Source: a bacterium (lineage in GTDB: Bacteria > SAR324 > NAC60-12). From it: a stretch of DNA of 64,000 nt. Made by a program: the position numbers and the translations under genes. The notes below the pieces were generated by a model. It was not told the origin of the DNA and ran no database searches. It saw nothing but the letters and a program-made list of their open reading frames with translations. Location of the stretch: positions 192,001 through 256,000 of the forward strand of contig CBDDTI010000747.1 of the NCBI GenBank assembly GCA_965233585.1, written 5' to 3'. Below are positions 54,635 to 63,676 of the stretch, piece after piece; position 1 is the first letter of the stretch; every line of letters starts with the position of its first letter.

Positions 54635-54869
54635 AATGAAACTCTACTTTCAACTCTCTAAATCCAAATCTCATCTTCATCTGACAATTCCCTCCTCTTT
54701 TCAAACACCTCTCTTTTTTTCCTCACTCTTGAGTCCCAAGCCATGAGTCATCTCCCCATGGTTCATCAAAAAATCCTCTTCAACTCAAAAACTCAAAATC
54801 AAACATTCTCACCTCGTGAGAATGCGACTTCAGCATCATGTCCTTGCATGTTTCAGTTTGGCATACACT

Positions 54870-54885
54870 TGGCATAATGGTTGCT
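54870..54885 (+). promoter_or_regulatory. Putative sigma54 (-24/-12) promoter
   Basis: TGGCATAATGGTTGCT matches GG-N10-GC consensus; overlapping second match TGGCATACACTTGGC at 54859. Confidence 0.65.
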
Positions 54886-54911
54886 TATTTACAATTCAAT
54901 CAAACCAAACT

Positions 54912-55130
54912 ATGAAACTTTCTTTAAGCAAACTAGTTATCATTTTCATTTTAGTCATCGTTGCCATTCTTGCCCTGCACCCAGAATTGACAGAAGAAAG
55001 CCAGATGCTGCAACTCGGTTTAAGTCAGTTATGGGTCAGCCTTCAAGAAGTGGGTCAAGTACTTTGGGAAATGGGAGAATCTGTTGCAGAAATTTTTAAG
55101 TTTTTGTGGAATAAATATATTTCTAATTAA
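54912..55130 (+). CDS. Small single-TM hypothetical protein
   Basis: MKLSLSKLVIIFILVIVAILALHP; 72 aa. Confidence 0.6.
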   Translation: MKLSLSKLVIIFILVIVAILALHPELTEESQMLQLGLSQLWVSLQEVGQVLWEMGESVAEIFKFLWNKYISN

Positions 55131-55150
55131 TTATAAGTAATGAGGTCAAT

Positions 55151-55558
55151 ATGAATCCAGTTAAACGCTCATATCAGTTTCGGATACTGGTGAATTTTCG
55201 GGTGAGCCCTAATATCAATCTTCCAATTTTAGTTGATAGAATCCGTTGGGAAGAGATGATGAGTGTTGCAGATTCTGCATGTATGGAGGCACAGTGCCGA
55301 TTTTTAGATTTAGCACACCATGAGAATCAGCTGACATTGTTGATTGCCTTAAAAAAATCAGACTTACACTCTACTTTAGATCAGCTGGAGGTAGAGTTTA
55401 ACAGGAAAATGAAATCGGTGATCCAGCCCCTAGAAGAACATTTCATGGGTGGAAGCTTTTTTGAGGAAATTGCTTGTTCTAGTGCTGATGCAGACGGTGC
55501 CACATCTTTGCCCAAAAAAGCATCATACCAAAAACAAAAAGAAGCAGTCCCTAGCTGA
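55151..55558 (+). CDS. Hypothetical protein resembling an inactivated IS200/IS605 TnpA (Y1 HUH) fold
   Basis: gagg RBS; by-eye alignment to IS200 TnpA with DHVHLL replaced by NQLTLL; ends at TGA in frame with next ORF. Confidence 0.5.
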   Translation: MNPVKRSYQFRILVNFRVSPNINLPILVDRIRWEEMMSVADSACMEAQCRFLDLAHHENQLTLLIALKKSDLHSTLDQLEVEFNRKMKSVIQPLEEHFMGGSFFEEIACSSADADGATSLPKKASYQKQKEAVPS

Positions 55559-55600
55559 AGAGAAACCAATCCCCAACAGCAGTGGTATGCTCTCATTGGT

Positions 55601-55981
55601 TTGATTTCGTCATACGCATTCCATCACGACCAAGCAGACACTGTTGCAGGAATCAACCAAGACTGGTGTCATCAAACTCTCCAAACACTGCTGAACATCT
55701 GTTCTGAAAACCACAAGTCTTTGTTAGATACCATTTCAGAACTACTAGAATTTAATACTCTTGTCAAAACAGGAATGATCTCTCCAGAAGGAAACCCCCC
55801 TCCTGATTTAGAAGATATTGCAAAACACATCTGGCGTGAATGCCAAGACAAATCTTTTGTTGAAACTCTCCAATTTCTCATCAATCAAAGAAAAATGATG
55901 CTGCAAGAGTTATCGGACTCTGTCAACGTTCTAAGCCAGAAAACACAAGCCATTTCCATTGAAAATCTTTGTCAAATTTAA
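55601..55981 (+). CDS. Hypothetical helical protein, in frame with 55151..55558 (possibly one gene)
   Basis: Only a TTG start with no evident RBS; the frame is open from 55559. Confidence 0.5.
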   Translation: MISSYAFHHDQADTVAGINQDWCHQTLQTLLNICSENHKSLLDTISELLEFNTLVKTGMISPEGNPPPDLEDIAKHIWRECQDKSFVETLQFLINQRKMMLQELSDSVNVLSQKTQAISIENLCQI

Positions 55982-56100: not shown

Positions 56101-56868
56101 ATGAAGAGAAAAGCGTATTGGCTCTTTTTTATTTCATTCTCACTTTTGCTGGGAGCATTATCCAGTGTTCATGCACAAGAGATGTCTGCTCAACCACAAG
56201 CTGTACCAGCACATGCCGTTGAACAGCCCATCGCATTTAGTCATCAGTTGCATGCCACAGAAAATCAGACTCCCTGTCAATATTGCCATATTTACGCAAG
56301 ACGTTCTTCGTCTTCTGGTGTTCCATCGGTGAACATTTGTATTGGTTGTCATGGAACGAAGCAAATGCCCATCATCGCACCCGATTCTGCTGAAGTTGCT
56401 AAACTTCGTGATTATTGGGACAAGCAAGAGCCAATTCCTTGGCAAAAAGTGCATGACGTGCCTGACTTCGTGAGGTTTCCTCATAAATCCCATATCAACG
56501 CCAGTCCAACACGTTTTGTTGAAGGAGCAGAAAGTGCTTGCGACCCCAATCAAGATTCACGTTCCACAGCGTGTATGATTAAACTGTTCAAGCAAGGTGG
56601 AGACACGAGATGTCAAGCCTGCCACGGAAACATTGCAAGTATGCCTGTTGTCTATCAAGTAGATGAGAATTTTGCTGACATGGGGTGGTGTCTGAATTGT
56701 CATTTACAAGTCAAAGGAGCTAAAGCCCGCAAATCATTGACAAGCACTATGGGGGCTTGGTTTAACTTCCAAGAAGAAGAAAAACAAAGGCTCAAGAACA
56801 TGGCTTTGCTCAACCCCAAAGGGTATCACAACCCCAACATTTCTGACTGTGCTGCTTGTCATTACTAG
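56101..56868 (+). CDS. actA: Alternative complex III pentaheme cytochrome c subunit
   Basis: QPIAFSH..H; five CxxCH motifs (CQYCH, CIGCH, CQACH, CLNCH, CAACH); PDFVRFPH. Confidence 0.9.
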   Translation: MKRKAYWLFFISFSLLLGALSSVHAQEMSAQPQAVPAHAVEQPIAFSHQLHATENQTPCQYCHIYARRSSSSGVPSVNICIGCHGTKQMPIIAPDSAEVAKLRDYWDKQEPIPWQKVHDVPDFVRFPHKSHINASPTRFVEGAESACDPNQDSRSTACMIKLFKQGGDTRCQACHGNIASMPVVYQVDENFADMGWCLNCHLQVKGAKARKSLTSTMGAWFNFQEEEKQRLKNMALLNPKGYHNPNISDCAACHY

Positions 56869-56879
56869 GAGTTAAATTG

Positions 56880-59819
56880 ATGAAAAGAGGATTAAGCAGA
56901 AGAAATTTATTAAAGTATGCAGGTTTAAGCGGGGCGTCTGCTGTTGCGGCAGGTTGTCAAAATGAACCTGAAAAGATTATTCCTTTACTTATTCCACCCA
57001 ACGAGTTTGAGTATGTTCCCCAACAAGCATACCAATACATGACCACTTGTCATGAATGTTCTGCAGGTTGTGGAATGATGGTCACCGTGCGTGAAGGTCG
57101 TGCGCAGAAAGCAGAGGGTAACCCTCTTCACCCCATTAACAAAGGTGCATTGTGTTCTCACGGGCAAGCATCTATGCAGGCTCTCTACAACCCTGAACGG
57201 CTACCTTTGCCTTTGAAAAAAGGAGGTGAGCAAACAGATTGGGACACTGCACTCAAGTTGTTCCAAGAGAAAGTCAAAGCATCTCAAGGGAAAATTGCTT
57301 ATGTCAGCTCCAATTTGACTGCCACCAAAAAGAAGTTTGTGAGCCAGTGGCTTACAGAAGTTGGAGGTCGGCATGTCGTTTTTGAACTCTTTCAGCCTGA
57401 TAGTCTGAAGCAGGCTAATGAAATTGCCTTCGGTCAAGCTCAAGTGCCTGTTTTTGCCTTTGAAGAGGCAGAGTATCTTTTGAACTTTGGTGCAGACTTC
57501 GTTGAAAGTTGGGGGTCCTCAAGCGAGCATTCCAGACGCTTTGCACAAATGAGACTTCACACCAAAGAACATCATAAAGTCAAATATGTTCATGCCAGCC
57601 CCCATGTCTCTTTGACTGGTGCGCAGTCTGACGAGTGGGTGCCGATTAAGCCCGGAACTGAAGGCTTGATGGCATTAGCTCTTGCCTATGAAGTGCGTCA
57701 AGCCAAAGGAGGTTATGAATTTTTGCAGGAATATCTTGAACGATACACACCAGACAAAGTTGCCTCAAAGATAGGAATTGACGCCAAACGCATTCGTGAA
57801 ATTGCCCAAGAAATTATCAAAGCATCTCCCAGTTTGATTCTTGGCGGGGGTAATTTAGTGGCATCAGAACATGGTGTCTCAACATTAGTAGCAGTGAATA
57901 TCTTGAACGCAGTCGCTGGCAATCTAGGTAGAACCGTCAGATTCACTGACAACGTTTCAGAAGACGATAATTCATACAAAATTCAAAACTTAATTCAAGA
58001 TTTAGAACAATCTCAAATAGATTTGGTCATCTTTGATGAGGTCAATCCCGTTTATGCCTTGCCCAAATCTGCTAACTTTGAAGCGCTGCTCAAAAAAACT
58101 TTCACTGTCAGCCTCTGTTCTGCAAAATCAGAGACTGCACATGTTTCGGATTTAGTACTTGCGACGTTGACACCTTATGAGACGTGGGGCGATGCAGAAG
58201 TCCGTGATGGAGTACGCAGCATCTCTCAGCCTGTCATGGCGCCAGTTGATGTTTTCAATGCAAAAGCAACAGAAGAAATTTTACTTTCAACAGCCAAGAC
58301 GATAGGACTGGAATCGTTTGTCAATATTCCAACTTACTTGGCATACCTACAAAGCGAATGGAAAGCACTCAGCCCTGACCAAACTGATGCAGGATTCAGA
58401 AGTTTTTGGATTTCTGTTTTAGAAAATGGAGGAATCTTCAGAGAAACCAGAGAGAGTGATGTAGAACTGCTTGAAAATGTTCTCTCATTTCAGCCTCAAG
58501 AAGTGTCTTTAGAAGGCGACGGCTTTGCATTTTTACCTCTGCCTTCACCCATGTTAGGAGACGGAAGCGGTGCAAACAAACCTTGGCTTCAAGAGGTGCC
58601 AGACCCAATGAGTCAGATTGTTTGGGACTCTTGGCTAGAAATCAACCCTGACACTGCAAAAAGCCTCAAGATAGGTGATCGTGATGTTGTGGAAGTTTCA
58701 ACACCTTATGGCGCTTTGACTTTAACTGCATATTACCATTTTGGCATTCATCGGGAGGCTGTTGGTATTCAAATTGGTCAAGGTCATACTAACTCCGGTG
58801 TAGTTGCAGACGGGTTTGGTGTCAATGCCCTAGATTTACTGCCTTATCAGCATGACAAAGTTTCTGGTGGCTTTTCATTTTTGTCGGTGAAAGCTCAAGT
58901 CAAGAAAATCCCCAAAAAATCATACACTGTGAACATGGACGGCAATGCCCGTCAATTAGGGAGAGAGATTGCTGTCTCCATCACTTTAGAAGAACTGAAA
59001 AAAGGAAAGACTTATAAGAAGGGACACAAACGACCTGTTGAATTTTACCCCGAACGTGCTAAGACTGCGGGGTATTACAAGCCGTATCGCTGGGGAATGG
59101 TCATTGATTTAGACCGTTGTGATGGTTGTTCTGCCTGTGTTGTTGCCTGTTATGCAGAAAATAATATTCCCGTCGTCGGTAAGGAAAGAATGGCACTAGG
59201 ACGAGAAATGTCTTGGTTGAGAATGGAACGTTACATTGAAGGCTTTGGAGACAATTTTGAAGTCCGCTTCATTCCAATGGGTTGCCAGCATTGCGAAAAT
59301 GCAGGTTGTGAAACCGTCTGTCCTGTCTATGCCACATATCACAACCCAGAAGGATTGAATATCCAAGTTTACAATCGCTGTGTTGGGACACGTTATTGTT
59401 CTAACAACTGTGCATACAAAGTCAGACGATTTAATTGGTTTCAATATGATTTTCCTGCTCCCTTAGACCAACAACTCAATAGTTCCATCACCACACGTGA
59501 CATGGGAGTCATGGAAAAATGCACATGGTGTGTGCAAAGAATCAAAGAGGCTCAATATCAAGCGAAAAAACTCAATAGAGATGTGCTAGATGGAGAAGTT
59601 GTTACAGCATGCCAACAAACCTGTGCCACCAATGCTATTACTTTTGGAAACTTGGCAGACCCTGAAAGCCGTGTCTCACAACTAGCCAAACGTAGAAAAC
59701 ATGAGGTAGATTCAAGAGACCGTCAATATGAAGTGTTGTCTGAACTCAACTTCAAGCCTGCTGTGACTTATTTGAAAAAAATTAGATTTCGTGAAACAGA
59801 ACCGTTTGGAACACACTAG
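56880..59819 (+). CDS. actB: Alternative complex III subunit B (molybdopterin-oxidoreductase-like plus FeS domain)
   Basis: Tat motif SRRNLLK; WLQEVPDP; DLDRCDGCSACVVAC, CQHCENAGCETVCP, RCVGTRYCSNNC, EKCTWC. Confidence 0.92.
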   Translation: MKRGLSRRNLLKYAGLSGASAVAAGCQNEPEKIIPLLIPPNEFEYVPQQAYQYMTTCHECSAGCGMMVTVREGRAQKAEGNPLHPINKGALCSHGQASMQALYNPERLPLPLKKGGEQTDWDTALKLFQEKVKASQGKIAYVSSNLTATKKKFVSQWLTEVGGRHVVFELFQPDSLKQANEIAFGQAQVPVFAFEEAEYLLNFGADFVESWGSSSEHSRRFAQMRLHTKEHHKVKYVHASPHVSLTGAQSDEWVPIKPGTEGLMALALAYEVRQAKGGYEFLQEYLERYTPDKVASKIGIDAKRIREIAQEIIKASPSLILGGGNLVASEHGVSTLVAVNILNAVAGNLGRTVRFTDNVSEDDNSYKIQNLIQDLEQSQIDLVIFDEVNPVYALPKSANFEALLKKTFTVSLCSAKSETAHVSDLVLATLTPYETWGDAEVRDGVRSISQPVMAPVDVFNAKATEEILLSTAKTIGLESFVNIPTYLAYLQSEWKALSPDQTDAGFRSFWISVLENGGIFRETRESDVELLENVLSFQPQEVSLEGDGFAFLPLPSPMLGDGSGANKPWLQEVPDPMSQIVWDSWLEINPDTAKSLKIGDRDVVEVSTPYGALTLTAYYHFGIHREAVGIQIGQGHTNSGVVADGFGVNALDLLPYQHDKVSGGFSFLSVKAQVKKIPKKSYTVNMDGNARQLGREIAVSITLEELKKGKTYKKGHKRPVEFYPERAKTAGYYKPYRWGMVIDLDRCDGCSACVVACYAENNIPVVGKERMALGREMSWLRMERYIEGFGDNFEVRFIPMGCQHCENAGCETVCPVYATYHNPEGLNIQVYNRCVGTRYCSNNCAYKVRRFNWFQYDFPAPLDQQLNSSITTRDMGVMEKCTWCVQRIKEAQYQAKKLNRDVLDGEVVTACQQTCATNAITFGNLADPESRVSQLAKRRKHEVDSRDRQYEVLSELNFKPAVTYLKKIRFRETEPFGTH

Positions 59820-59837
59820 CCCGAGAGGAAACGCCTT

Positions 59838-61223
59838 ATGAGCATGGTACATTTTTCATATGCCAAAATTAATGATGATTTGCTGGACATGCTGGAACGT
59901 CCAAAGCCTTCCTATTTTTTGCTGGTTCTTGGATTCTTAGCAGCGTTGATGCTTGGCGTTTTAAGTTTAGCAATTCAAGTGGATGTTGGAATTGGCTACA
60001 GTGGGATTAGTCACCCAATCAACTGGGGTGTTTACATCACAAATTTTGTGTTCTGGATTGGGATTGGTCATGCTGGTACATTGATTTCTGCAGTGTTTTA
60101 TTTAACACGCGCCCCGTGGAGAACTGCGATTTATAGAGGAGCAGAAGCCATGACTGTTTTTGCTGTGATGACTGCTGGTATGTTTCCACTTCTACACACA
60201 GGACGCCCTTGGTTGACATATTGGCTTATTCCATACCCTAATCAACGCATGTTGTGGGTGAACTTTAAGTCTCCTCTTGCATGGGACGTGTTTGCAGTTT
60301 CTACATACATGACAGTGTCCATGCTTTTTTTCTTGCTGGGATTGATTCCAGACCTTGCTATCTTGAGAGATGAAGCCATTTTAAGAGGTAAAAAACTGAA
60401 GGCAGCGCTTTATGCACCTTTGGCTCTTGCATGGCGTGGAACAAATCATCAATGGATTCACTACATGCGTGGCTATCTCATTTTTGCTGCGATTGCGACC
60501 CCTCTGGTGTTTTCTGTTCACTCCATTGTGTCTTGGGACTTTGCCATGTCTTCTGTTCCCGGTTGGCACACTACCATTTTTGCACCCTACTTTGTAGCAG
60601 GAGCTATTTTTTCAGGTATGGCAATGGTGATGACTGTTTTGATTCCTGTCCGTGTTGTTTTTGGGTTGGAACATTACATCACAGACCATGTAGTCCAAAG
60701 TGTCTGCCGCGTGATTGTCTTCACCTCTGTCATTGTAGGATACGCTTACGCAACAGAGTTTTTTATTGCATTTTACAGTGGTTCTACCTTTGAAAGAGCC
60801 ATCTTTTACTTCAGACCTTTTGGCGTGATGGCAGGCTGGACTTTGCTGGGAGAACAAGGCATCGGTTTCCCACAGGTTGCATTTTATTTGATGGTTTTTT
60901 GCAATGTCATTGCCCCAATTCCTTTGTGGCGTTGGAAGGTTCGCAACAATCTGATTGCCGTTTGGATTATCTGCGGTTTGATCAATGTTGGCATGTGGTT
61001 TGAGCGATTTAACATTGTCGGCAGTTCGCTACAACGTGAGTTTCTACCTCATTCTTGGGGTTCTTACTGGCCTACCATCGTAGAATTTGGAATCACTGTT
61101 GGCAGTTTTGGACTCTTTTTTACACTCTTTAGTTTATTTGTCAAGGCATTGCCACCTATGGCGATTATGGAATTGAAAGAGGCGGCACACCCACCAATGA
61201 AAAATAAGGAAGCTCATGAATAA
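59838..61223 (+). CDS. actC: Alternative complex III subunit C (NrfD family)
   Basis: NFVFWIGIGHAGTLISA, HTGRPW, SPLAWDVFAVSTY, VHSIVSWDFA, GMWFERF. Confidence 0.95.
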   Translation: MSMVHFSYAKINDDLLDMLERPKPSYFLLVLGFLAALMLGVLSLAIQVDVGIGYSGISHPINWGVYITNFVFWIGIGHAGTLISAVFYLTRAPWRTAIYRGAEAMTVFAVMTAGMFPLLHTGRPWLTYWLIPYPNQRMLWVNFKSPLAWDVFAVSTYMTVSMLFFLLGLIPDLAILRDEAILRGKKLKAALYAPLALAWRGTNHQWIHYMRGYLIFAAIATPLVFSVHSIVSWDFAMSSVPGWHTTIFAPYFVAGAIFSGMAMVMTVLIPVRVVFGLEHYITDHVVQSVCRVIVFTSVIVGYAYATEFFIAFYSGSTFERAIFYFRPFGVMAGWTLLGEQGIGFPQVAFYLMVFCNVIAPIPLWRWKVRNNLIAVWIICGLINVGMWFERFNIVGSSLQREFLPHSWGSYWPTIVEFGITVGSFGLFFTLFSLFVKALPPMAIMELKEAAHPPMKNKEAHE

Positions 61224-61731
61224 ATTTATTTGGGCAGTTTTTGAAAATTTAGATGAAACTTGCCAAGCCGTCAAAGAAATTCGTAAAGAAGGGAATACAC
61301 CGACTGTCATTTCTCCATGCCCCAGACATGAGATAGATCACGCTTTGGGTGACCCCCAAAGCAGACTGCCTTTCATCTCTTTGTTTTTCGGAGCGTTGGG
61401 CTGTTTTACGGGTTACAGCTTTGTAGCATGGACAGCAGCTGATTGGGTACTGCCCGTCAGTGGCAAGCCGATTATTACCATTCCTCCTTTTACCATTGTC
61501 GGTTTTGAGTTGACCATCTTATTCACAGCATTGTTCACACTTGCAGGTATGGTGATTTTAGGCATCATTGATTCTGTCAAACACCCATTACCAAAAGGGG
61601 CTAAGTTTTATCCTCGTTTTCAAAGAGACCGCTTTGGTGTCGTCATTTCTTGTGAAGAAAGTAGCGTTCCCAAATTTCAACAGACGCTTGAAAAAAATGG
61701 AGCAGAGGAGGTACATGTTGAAAGTCAATAG
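61216..61731 (+). CDS. actD: Alternative complex III subunit D (DUF3341)
   Basis: SPCP.H, DWVLPVSGKP, FELTILF, PRF..DRF, GAEEV. Confidence 0.9.
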   Translation: MNKFIWAVFENLDETCQAVKEIRKEGNTPTVISPCPRHEIDHALGDPQSRLPFISLFFGALGCFTGYSFVAWTAADWVLPVSGKPIITIPPFTIVGFELTILFTALFTLAGMVILGIIDSVKHPLPKGAKFYPRFQRDRFGVVISCEESSVPKFQQTLEKNGAEEVHVESQ

Positions 61732-62395
61732 TTTGAAATTAGTTTTAATTTTCTGCTCATTTGTAATCTTTTCTGTCAGTTGGGCAGACCCTAAAAATAA
61801 TCCTTACAATGACCCCAACAAAGGGTCAAAAGATGGCAAAGGATATGGATTTAAAGATGATGCTCGCCCTTGGTTTGATGGCAAAGACTACCCCTTTTAC
61901 AGAGACATGTACGATGGTAAAAGCATCAAAGCTCAGGAAGAAGGGACTTATCAGAATTTTCCTACTCAATCTGTCCCTGTCAGTTTTCAGCTTGGAAAGA
62001 TTAAAAAAATCTATGAGCCTCTCGTGCCCATAGCAGAACGTTCAGTCAGTCCTGTCAACCCTCACCCTGCAACCCCAGAGTCTATTGCTAGAGGTCAAGT
62101 TCTATATGAGACCTATTGTGCTGTTTGTCATGGCAAGACAGGGAATGCGGAGTCACCTGTTGCAGAAAAAGCAAAAAAATATAGCTGGATCATTACACCC
62201 ATTTCAGCCTTGCTACCTGTGCTTTCTGAATCTCATCTTTATAATAAAATTCGTTATGGAAGTGCATATAATTTGGGGGATACCTATCAGCTTATACCTA
62301 GAACCATGCCCGCTTATGGAATGCAAACTTCTTCCAAAGATCGTTGGGACATAGTTAATTACATGAAAAGTCAAAGATTTGGAAAAAAGGATTGA
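61715..62395 (+). CDS. actE: Alternative complex III monoheme cytochrome c subunit E
   Basis: DMYD, RGQVLYETYCAVCHG, MPAYG, DRWDIVNY. Confidence 0.88.
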   Translation: MLKVNSLKLVLIFCSFVIFSVSWADPKNNPYNDPNKGSKDGKGYGFKDDARPWFDGKDYPFYRDMYDGKSIKAQEEGTYQNFPTQSVPVSFQLGKIKKIYEPLVPIAERSVSPVNPHPATPESIARGQVLYETYCAVCHGKTGNAESPVAEKAKKYSWIITPISALLPVLSESHLYNKIRYGSAYNLGDTYQLIPRTMPAYGMQTSSKDRWDIVNYMKSQRFGKKD

Positions 62396-62398
62396 TTG

Positions 62399-63676
62399 AT
62401 GAAGTCTATCGTAGAAAAGTCGGGATTTGAAATTAACCCAACATCTAAAACGGTGTTGGTTTCGTTTATGGTTCTTGCAGGAGTTGCCTTCACGGGTAGC
62501 TTAATTTTTGGAGGACAAGAGCTTGTTCGTAGGTCATGGCAGATTTTGTTGATTAACACTGTCTTTTGGGGGGGACTTTCTCAAGCTGGGGTGATTTGGG
62601 CAGTCGCATGGCAAATCACAGATGCCAAATGGGCAAGACCGTTCAAGAGAATAGGAGAGGCATTTGGTGCATTCTTGCCAGTCTCTTTTGTGATGTTTAT
62701 TTTGATCTTTTTTGGCATGAGCATTCTCTATGAGTGGACGCATACGCCTTTCTTCCATCACGGAGTCGCAGTCAAAGTTGGTTGGTTAAACATGCCTTTT
62801 TTTGTGAGTCGTAACATTTTTTGGCTTCTTCTAATGTATGGTGTCTCCTTTTTCTTTTTGTATGCTTCATGGCGTCCTGACTTTGGGTTAGCAAACAAAT
62901 TGACTCCAAATTGGGGGGGCAGTTTTGCCAAAAAATTCCTTAAAAATTACCCCCAAAATCATGAAAATGAAGTCATTAGACTGGAAGCATTGTCTAGGAA
63001 AATTGCCCCAACGCTAGCAATCATCTATGGAATTGGTGGGTCTTTTCTGGCATGGGATTACATTATGACACTGGATCAAGAATGGTTTAGCACCCTTTTT
63101 GGGGTCTTTATCTTAATTGGTAGCATGCAAGCGGCATTGGGAATTATGATTGCGGTGGCTGTGACTATCAGAGACAAATTTCAGTTGCAAGATTACATCA
63201 CCATCAATCGCCTGCATGATTTAGCCAAGTTGATCTTTGCCTTCTCTTTGCTTTGGACTTACATGGCATTTTCACAATATTTAGTCATCTGGTATGCGGA
63301 TTTGGCAGAAGAAACTCCTTTTGTCATCATTCGTTCCACAGAACAACCTTGGCAAACGATGTTTGTGATGCTTTTTGTCTGGTTGTTTGTTTCCGTCTTC
63401 TTGCTGTTACTTCCAAAAACTTTTTGTAGGAATCCAAATTTTATCCGCATCATGGGAGTTTATGTTGCAGTTGGGCAATGGCTTTCAATCTATCTTTTAG
63501 TTGTGCCATCAATTCAGGAATACGGTCATTATCAAATTGATTTTGGTTTGACTGAAATCATTGTGACATTAGGGTTTGTTGGGGCATTTTTCCTTTGCTT
63601 CCTAAATTGTCTCCGAAAACTTCCTCTCCTCCCCATCTCAGACAAGCATCTTTGCAAAACATGGCACGGTCATTGA
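62399..63676 (+). CDS. actF: Alternative complex III subunit F
   Basis: AKWARPFKRIGEA, WLN.PFF, WFSTLFG, HDLAKL, SQYLVIWYADL.EE. Confidence 0.9.
   Translation: MKSIVEKSGFEINPTSKTVLVSFMVLAGVAFTGSLIFGGQELVRRSWQILLINTVFWGGLSQAGVIWAVAWQITDAKWARPFKRIGEAFGAFLPVSFVMFILIFFGMSILYEWTHTPFFHHGVAVKVGWLNMPFFVSRNIFWLLLMYGVSFFFLYASWRPDFGLANKLTPNWGGSFAKKFLKNYPQNHENEVIRLEALSRKIAPTLAIIYGIGGSFLAWDYIMTLDQEWFSTLFGVFILIGSMQAALGIMIAVAVTIRDKFQLQDYITINRLHDLAKLIFAFSLLWTYMAFSQYLVIWYADLAEETPFVIIRSTEQPWQTMFVMLFVWLFVSVFLLLLPKTFCRNPNFIRIMGVYVAVGQWLSIYLLVVPSIQEYGHYQIDFGLTEIIVTLGFVGAFFLCFLNCLRKLPLLPISDKHLCKTWHGH

Follow-up and report, generated by a model that had tools for sequence, protein, structure and literature searches.

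The window, by which we mean the whole stretch of 64,000 nucleotides of SAR324 DNA analysed here, contains a small gene module on the forward strand. In this module one reading frame extends over 55151-55981 (+), consisting of 135 codons, a TGA at 55556-58, a further 140 codons and a TAA. The two parts are here named ORF1 and ORF2. The original prediction was that they share one frame and are split by a single TGA, and both its coordinates and its frame are borne out. The in-frame start codons 3' of the TGA are a TTG at codon 14 (55601), a TTG at codon 54, and the first ATG at codon 72. Gene callers give two proteins at the locus, both in the genome of the window (G000) and in the one other SAR324 genome in which the gene was found (G008, discussed below). 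The features are as follows.

54912..55130, + strand: gene of 72 residues with a hydrophobic N-terminus, first member of the module; its homologue lies directly upstream in G008.
55138..55150, + strand: Shine-Dalgarno-like GAGG before the ATG of ORF1 (-6.8 kcal/mol here, -10.2 kcal/mol in G008).
55151..55558, + strand: ORF1, 135 residues; predicted IS200/IS605 TnpA (Y1) fold at approximately residues 10-111, with a disordered linker from there to the TGA.
55556..55567, + strand: in-frame TGA and nine conserved bases (TGA AGA GAA ACC; TGA AGA GCA ACC in G008), a candidate readthrough site.
55559..55981, + strand: ORF2 frame, 140 codons; predicted helical domain with a conserved C-terminal AISIENLC; first possible start TTG 55601.
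55563..55602, + strand: the hairpin of the original prediction, which can form; not significant and not conserved.
55587..55604, + strand: ATG mini-ORF of five codons in the +1 frame; its TGA overlaps TTG 55601, and it has no Shine-Dalgarno sequence (0.0 kcal/mol).

The TGA at 55556-58 is in frame and genuine. It is present in contigs from four out of four sequencing runs: the region is found whole in X1-X3 and as two overlapping pieces in X4, with zero letter differences, the runs being from one study with at most two samples and possibly the source of the present assembly. Read support had been named beforehand as a point to check; these contigs agree throughout, and a sequencing error as the origin of the TGA was rejected. 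A search for RNA runs containing the region returned none, which weighs neither for nor against expression.

A shared frame is not in itself unusual. There are 242 in-frame neighbouring frames of at least 110 codons per 2.9 Mb, of which 40 have TGA between them, and an ATG is absent from the first 30 codons in 22 of the 242. Taken alone, the shared frame and the hairpin are within chance; it is the conservation of the junction that is above chance. The original prediction also noted that the downstream frame has only a TTG start with no evident ribosome-binding site. There is indeed none at TTG 55601 (-2.9 kcal/mol, a background value), but this counts for little as evidence, because true ATG starts in this genome have a median of only -1.8 kcal/mol, Shine-Dalgarno signals being weak genome-wide. 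A search for internal promoters gave three sites against 3.7 expected, none of them close to the junction. A frameshift at the UGA was considered and rejected: judging from the P-site codons AGC and GAT there should be no slippery re-pairing, and the peptides of the +1 and -1 frames are unconserved.

The proteins encoded by the module are named by no family library. Pfam, NCBIfam and PADLOC gave nothing above cut-off for the 72-residue gene, ORF1 or ORF2. The 72-residue protein is 31% identical to its G008 counterpart over 67 residues (E 1e-11), and was found only in these two of 88 genomes; we infer that this small membrane gene is in the same operon as ORF1 and ORF2. Upstream of it, the intergenic region 54635-54910 is pyrimidine-rich, and at 54803-54825 there is a hairpin of 10 pairs followed by a run of T on the minus strand.

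The joined product was modelled from a two-sequence alignment, with a mean pLDDT of 52. The domain of ORF1, residues 10-111, is predicted confidently (pLDDT 70-87 over residues 11-90), and is predicted to have the order strand-helix-helix-strand-strand-helix-strand. It is followed by a predicted disordered linker around the stop, and the helices predicted for ORF2 have pLDDT under 50. The best Foldseek match of the ORF1 model is ISDra2 TnpA (E 7.7e-5, rmsd 3.0 over 110 columns). VIA-align superimposes it on two TnpA structures with Z of 10.5 (rmsd 3.2, 109 residues aligned) and 9.1, and these are the only chains with Z of at least 8 among 48,161. The Pfam family Y1_Tnp is below cut-off (E 0.2 and 0.12), and Atlas assigns ORF1 a score of 0.85 for Y1_Tnp, which is to be read as a lead only. 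For ORF2, Atlas gives unnamed clusters with low recognition, and the best match from a sequence search of the PDB has an E of 0.27.

In its size and predicted fold, ORF1 therefore resembles the Y1 HUH transposases IS200/IS605 TnpA and TnpA-REP. TnpA requires an HUH motif and a catalytic tyrosine, and binds subterminal hairpins (PMC3597680). Unlike in TnpA, no His-x-His lies on the predicted strands in any of the four homologues, and in the same four there is no invariant His or Tyr column, the placement of these residues being judged from predicted secondary structure and not from structural alignment. Further differences are that the gene is single-copy in the assembly (tblastn and blastn), that no tnpB-sized ORF adjoins it, and that it is paired with a conserved membrane gene and a helical ORF2. 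Because the HUH motif and an invariant tyrosine are absent and the gene is single-copy, it is likely to encode a non-cutting binder derived from TnpA, and is not annotated here as TnpA. On the basis of the predicted fold, the short product of ORF1 is likely to be a nucleic-acid-hairpin-binding or regulatory protein and not a transposase.

The gene occurs in one of the 87 other SAR324 genomes, G008, which is from the same family and another genus. The layout is the same: a small membrane gene, ORF1 (161 residues), an in-frame TGA and an ORF2 frame of 155 codons. The linker before the stop is approximately 26 residues longer than in the window and the stretch after it five codons longer, with the frame kept. 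ORF1 is about 40% identical over 122 residues, and ORF2 is 30% identical over residues 31-140 (E 3e-13), where the median for orthologues of the two genomes is 43%. Identity of ORF2 by codon position is 0.40/0.62/0.24, and the C-terminal AISIENLC is invariant.

The junction itself is conserved more strongly. The TGA and the nine bases after it are identical at 11 of 12 positions, while the maximum over the 255 codon-aligned 12-nt windows of both halves is 10. The same stop codon followed by a match at eight of nine bases ranks first among 199 reciprocal-best orthologue pairs, these being drawn from the five big contigs of G000 and 854 kb of the approximately 9.7 Mb of G008, and the 9-nt window having been picked after the match had been seen. 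The next best are three pairs at six of nine, each with differing stop codons. At the other TGA ends of long frames, TGAAGAG occurs at 0 of 610 and 1 of 212. Two further ORF1 proteins, from closer relatives (P0006 and P0007, with identities of 74% and 78%), terminate at this same residue, ...PS. The original prediction had proposed to look at the state of this position in relatives: it is TGA in both of the loci compared at the DNA level (G000 and G008), and the same terminal residue in P0006 and P0007, which were compared as proteins. No ORF2 product was found from the contigs of P0006 and P0007, where ORF2 may be uncalled or absent.

Searches for other forms of the gene were negative. Among the four ORF1 homologues, a small sample, none has Cys at the UGA site. 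A fused homologue with a sense codon was found in none of 585 candidates of 151-483 residues in the protein database, a search of limited sensitivity because it also missed the 161-residue G008 protein. A search of 1.84 billion representatives gave four matches, all already known, and no fused form. When ORF2 alone was sought among proteins of 77-245 residues, the only true one of seven candidates was that of the window itself. JGI metagenomes gave 0 of 101 and 0 of 434 candidate stretches, and there was no match in plasmids and phages. A scan of GTDB genomes gave one positive in 140 (locus L023); this is the same stretch as L020 and is therefore not an independent genome. A viral match of 30 residues (L059) and a match in genome G037 (E 0.004, to an ORF of 631 residues) were both spurious.

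The original prediction proposed a SECIS-like stem-loop as the signal at this stop. The hairpin is positioned as it described: arms AAACCAAT (55563-70) and ATTGGTTT (55595-602) enclose AGCA-GTGGTA-TGCT, with a G-first loop 23 nt after the UGA. It matches a published consensus model of bacterial SECIS elements, having a G-first loop, then U, at 23 nt (PMC13188914). Nevertheless, it is no more stable than shuffled sequences (z = 0.12 for 76 nt and -0.73 for 60 nt), and its pair probability, 0.87-0.94 in a 50-nt fragment, is 0.0 in contexts of 105 and 160 nt. The bSECIS rule used here, a G in the first two loop positions at 16-37 nt from the UGA, is a loose one: such hairpins follow 105 of 610 TGA ends of long frames in G000, or 22 of 610 at -9 kcal/mol or below. 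In G008 the preferred hairpin 3' of the UGA closes a UUC loop; its pair probability is 0.90, and that of the G-loop alternative is 0.03. The two regions have no conserved structure in common (consensus -0.75 kcal/mol), and an Rfam search of the module gave no match. The stem-loop thus fits a loose model, but is no better than shuffles and unconserved in G008.

In SAR324, selD genes (three of the three seen; L032-L034) have a UGA, an 8-bp stem and a GGUC loop at 17 nt, and Rdx/SelW-like genes with UGA occur in 36 of 44 genomes of the family, with G-first loops at approximately 21-22 nt (L137-L156). Loops are G-first in 21 of 21 correctly parsed SAR324 SECIS folds, a comparison that leaves out two of the 20 Rdx loci, which were mis-parsed. 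The energy of the window hairpin, -9.2 kcal/mol, falls within the span of real SAR324 Rdx elements (-5.3 to -15.6).

The machinery for selenocysteine is missing from this organism. A profile search of the G000 assembly, which is 92% complete, found no selA, selB or selD above cut-off, and ARAGORN found no tRNA with a UCA anticodon. The candidates that did appear were rejected: two matches above cut-off to the tRNA-Sec model are tRNA-Ser with a TGA anticodon on a small contig (C418), the best selB match is EF-Tu-like, and a weak SelA match is another PLP enzyme, as judged from its sequence. No Rdx selenoprotein was found in G000 either. By contrast, of 88 SAR324 genomes 73 score above cut-off for selA. 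G008 is among these and has selD and tRNA-Sec as well; one genome (G005) has selA and an Rdx gene with UGA and no selD match. In G008 the gene order is rne-selA-rfbD, while in G000 the stop of rne overlaps the start of rfbD (C747:574340-574350, outside the window; L157). This junction is bridged by contigs from four of the four runs, and selA was therefore deleted rather than missed. There has been a lineage-specific loss of the selenocysteine trait in G000. The original prediction of a possible selenoprotein had itself named the selenocysteine genes as a check, and with selA, selB, selD and tRNA-Sec (selC) all unfound, and selA deleted at the syntenic site, that reading fails for this organism. 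As there are no selenocysteine genes in the assembly, the UGA is likely to be read through occasionally, which would add a second domain.

UGA is an ordinary stop codon in G000, ending 496 of 1581 frames of at least 250 codons. Both G000 and G008 have prfB, encoding RF2, each with a CTTTGA frameshift site. Genome-wide reassignment of UGA (codes 4 and 25) is excluded by this use of TGA and the retention of prfB.

Several features of the stretch between the TGA and TTG 55601 suggest coding sequence. The residues QWYALIG, upstream of the TTG, align with QFLMLLG in G008 with a BLOSUM score of 16, where the next best of 30 registers scores 1; a score of 16 is attained by 0.0008 of random protein 7-mers, and by two of 518 stretches before true ATGs. 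Over residues 6-14 after the TGA (nine codons), identity by codon position is 0.56/0.56/0.00. By codon use, the first 14 codons of the ORF2 frame reach the coding median and outscore 94% of 447 open spacers downstream of stops. A helix is predicted at residues 141-157, with low confidence, spanning the TTG. From these alignments, similarity appears to begin upstream of TTG 55601, and in the protein alignment the candidate starts of ORF2 fall at non-homologous residues in the two genomes.

These observations bear on the possibility that ORF1 and ORF2 are two separate, translationally coupled genes. ORF2 would then start from TTG 55601 (TTG or ATG in G008), maybe by re-initiation or by way of the +1 mini-ORF; the 12 bases would serve as a signal for coupling or as a binding site, and chance would account for part of the shared frame. 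We consider this the main alternative, though rather unlikely. Codons 14-16 after the stop in G008 are TTG-ATG-TTG, preceded by a GAGG Shine-Dalgarno sequence (-6.8 and -6.4 kcal/mol, spacing 11-14 nt); on its sequence this is a workable independent start, and it is counted against readthrough. Among the seven matching residues discussed above, only the pairs Q/Q and W/F are upstream of G008's own start, and the BLAST alignment of ORF2 stops at residue 31, residues 15-30 being just 6% identical. The distance from the TGA to the first TTG is exactly 14 codons in G000 as in G008, and at this point TTGAT also closes the +1 frame with an overlapping TGA, an arrangement that would suit coupling and is unexplained by readthrough. 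It may be added that two proteins are called in both genomes, that in-frame neighbours are as common as noted above, that Shine-Dalgarno signals are in any case weak across G000, and that for seven more of the 199 pairs a long next frame follows in phase in both genomes. In each of those seven, however, an ATG occurs within 20 codons, whereas the first one here is at codon 72. With a start at 55601, moreover, the seven residues that match G008 would be lost, and the candidate starts are not homologous. Apparent dependence on a TTG start is seen in at most eight of the 199 orthologues (18 have no start at all by a crude rule), no start codon lies at Shine-Dalgarno distance from the conserved bases, and the peptides of the -1 and +1 frames are unconserved.

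It is also conceivable that the UGA encoded selenocysteine in an ancestor and still does so in G008, and that the lineage of the window, having lost the machinery, retained the UGA together with a SECIS element in decay. Like the selD and Rdx genes of SAR324, the present gene has an in-frame UGA and a downstream hairpin that fits the loose consensus (PMC13188914) with an energy in the range of real Rdx elements, and the trait is widespread in SAR324 and present in G008. Unlike them, it is in a genome without SelA, SelB, SelD or tRNA-Sec, from which selA has been cleanly deleted; the hairpin is unconserved, G008 favouring a UUC loop in place of the G-first loop of true elements. The UGA is at the end of a linker that is variable and disordered, and no homologue has Cys there. 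Nor is there a redox motif, a caveat already made in the original prediction and upheld here. A selenocysteine gene or its relic is accordingly improbable. The remaining explanation is an old nonsense mutation or gene fission that split a formerly continuous gene and left ORF2 to decay. In its favour, conservation is lower in ORF2 (30%) than in ORF1 (40%), and no ORF2 product was found for P0006 or P0007. Against it, the ORF2 frame stays open over 140 codons in one genus and 155 in the other, at a median orthologue identity of 43% between the two, and it retains a coding substitution pattern and the invariant AISIENLC. We find such decay very improbable indeed. A nonsense mutation had been allowed for in the original prediction; a plain recent one is likewise unlikely.

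With moderate confidence, we favour context-driven readthrough of the UGA, probably as tryptophan, yielding a short and a long isoform. Two isoforms had been suggested in the original prediction, and the conserved stop, frame and 3' bases give this comparative support; the case is built from comparison, and the hairpin that was to provide the signal is unlikely to do so. From the alignment of the two loci, the signal is likely to be the bases just after the stop. Ribosomes would mostly terminate at the UGA by means of RF2, to give the product of 135 residues. A near-cognate tRNA-Trp would read a fraction through, tryptophan being suggested by E. coli data, and the conserved AGA GNA ACC, which is T-free and purine-rich, would set the rate of leakage. 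The long product of 276 residues would be a minor two-domain form, in which a flexible linker would lead to the helical ORF2 domain. The leakiest stop in E. coli is reported to be TGA, mostly read as Trp, and a 3' sequence low in T and high in G favours readthrough (PMC11126739); an unpinned tRNA-Trp is reported to be able to raise UGA readthrough (PMC13092985).

The gene for tRNA-Trp(CCA) of G000 (C747:191824-191899; L060/L061) is just before the window, and has a wobble pair at the top of the anticodon stem. Among 26 of 30 loci that could be parsed, this U27-G43 pair is found in G000 only, the 25 other SAR324 tRNA-Trp genes, including that of G008, having U-A at 27-43; both G000 and G008 have G24. 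The wobble might raise UGA leakage in G000. A suppressor tRNA as the shared cause in both genomes was rejected, the wobble being confined to G000.

A close parallel in organisation, and the textbook functional case, is the coat/A1 gene of coliphage Qbeta, in which an N-terminal domain and an in-frame C-terminal extension likewise share a start and are parted by one UGA, with Trp inserted at the UGA at a low level, 1/15 (PMC8067240). It differs in being an RNA-phage capsid gene and not a bacterial chromosomal one; there is no sequence relation, and readthrough at the present locus is proposed from comparison. Belinky et al. (2021, PMC7918605) reported in-frame stops that are orthologous between bacteria and under purifying selection; these also share the place of the stop and a coding type of conservation downstream, and were interpreted as readthrough. 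In the cases described there, dN and dS are approximately 0.002-0.004 around the stops, and orthologues with a sense codon define the gene. The present stop, by contrast, is kept between genera at 30-40% identity with its 3' context conserved, and the searches gave no form with a sense codon.

Viruses and animals provide well-known examples of functional stop-codon readthrough, and conserved in-frame UGAs of bacterial chromosomes are mostly explained by selenocysteine. If real, a case that is conserved across genera, independent of selenocysteine and conserved in its context, in a gene of a bacterial chromosome whose predicted TnpA fold is disarmed, would be new, even though readthrough itself is known. 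The literature search found no paper on the present gene or motif, as far as the portions of text available to it extend. We tentatively put forward a more specific proposal: that in SAR324 a chromosomal gene whose product has a disarmed fold of IS200 type has kept, across two genera, a programmed and selenium-independent readthrough at UGA AGA GNA ACC, in which the activity of RF2 would set the ratio of the short hairpin-binder to the long form, and the short form may regulate itself by binding its own mRNA behind the stop. If true, both the bacterial readthrough motif and the family of domesticated TnpA would be new. The best-conserved nine post-stop bases of 199 pairs, in a lineage that has deleted selA, make a short motif that can be tested with a reporter, and the locus also draws attention to a small module with a predicted TnpA fold that has been disarmed catalytically. 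Should the coupled genes prove correct, what remains is an unexplained, conserved junction between two hypothetical genes.

Some observations on the surroundings are worth recording. The assembly is 12 Mb in size, and the bacterial set of tRNAs is on five large contigs totalling 2.9 Mb. The small contigs, approximately 9 Mb (for example C4, C182, C380, C418 and C740), carry tandem arrays of tRNA-like sequences, called as 66 Thr-GGT, 32 Arg-TCT and 16 Lys-CTT, and have serine tRNAs that we take to be of eukaryotic type. The assembly is thus likely to mix eukaryotic DNA with a bacterial genome of approximately 3 Mb, despite a contamination figure of 2%. On the large contig of the window, three in-frame TGA pairs of identical context and without ATG (G000:C747:1061259, 1061739 and 1067493) are probably antisense shadows of a minus-strand gene for a repeat protein. 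Repeated shadow frames also revealed near-identical repeats of about 61 codons in the C-terminal part of RNase E (G000:C747:571687-574350). Within the window, the operon at 56101-63676 has Pfam matches to cytochromes, including a multiheme cytochrome c, and with a molybdopterin-family/Fe-S subunit and NrfD-like membrane subunits it presumably encodes an alternative complex III.
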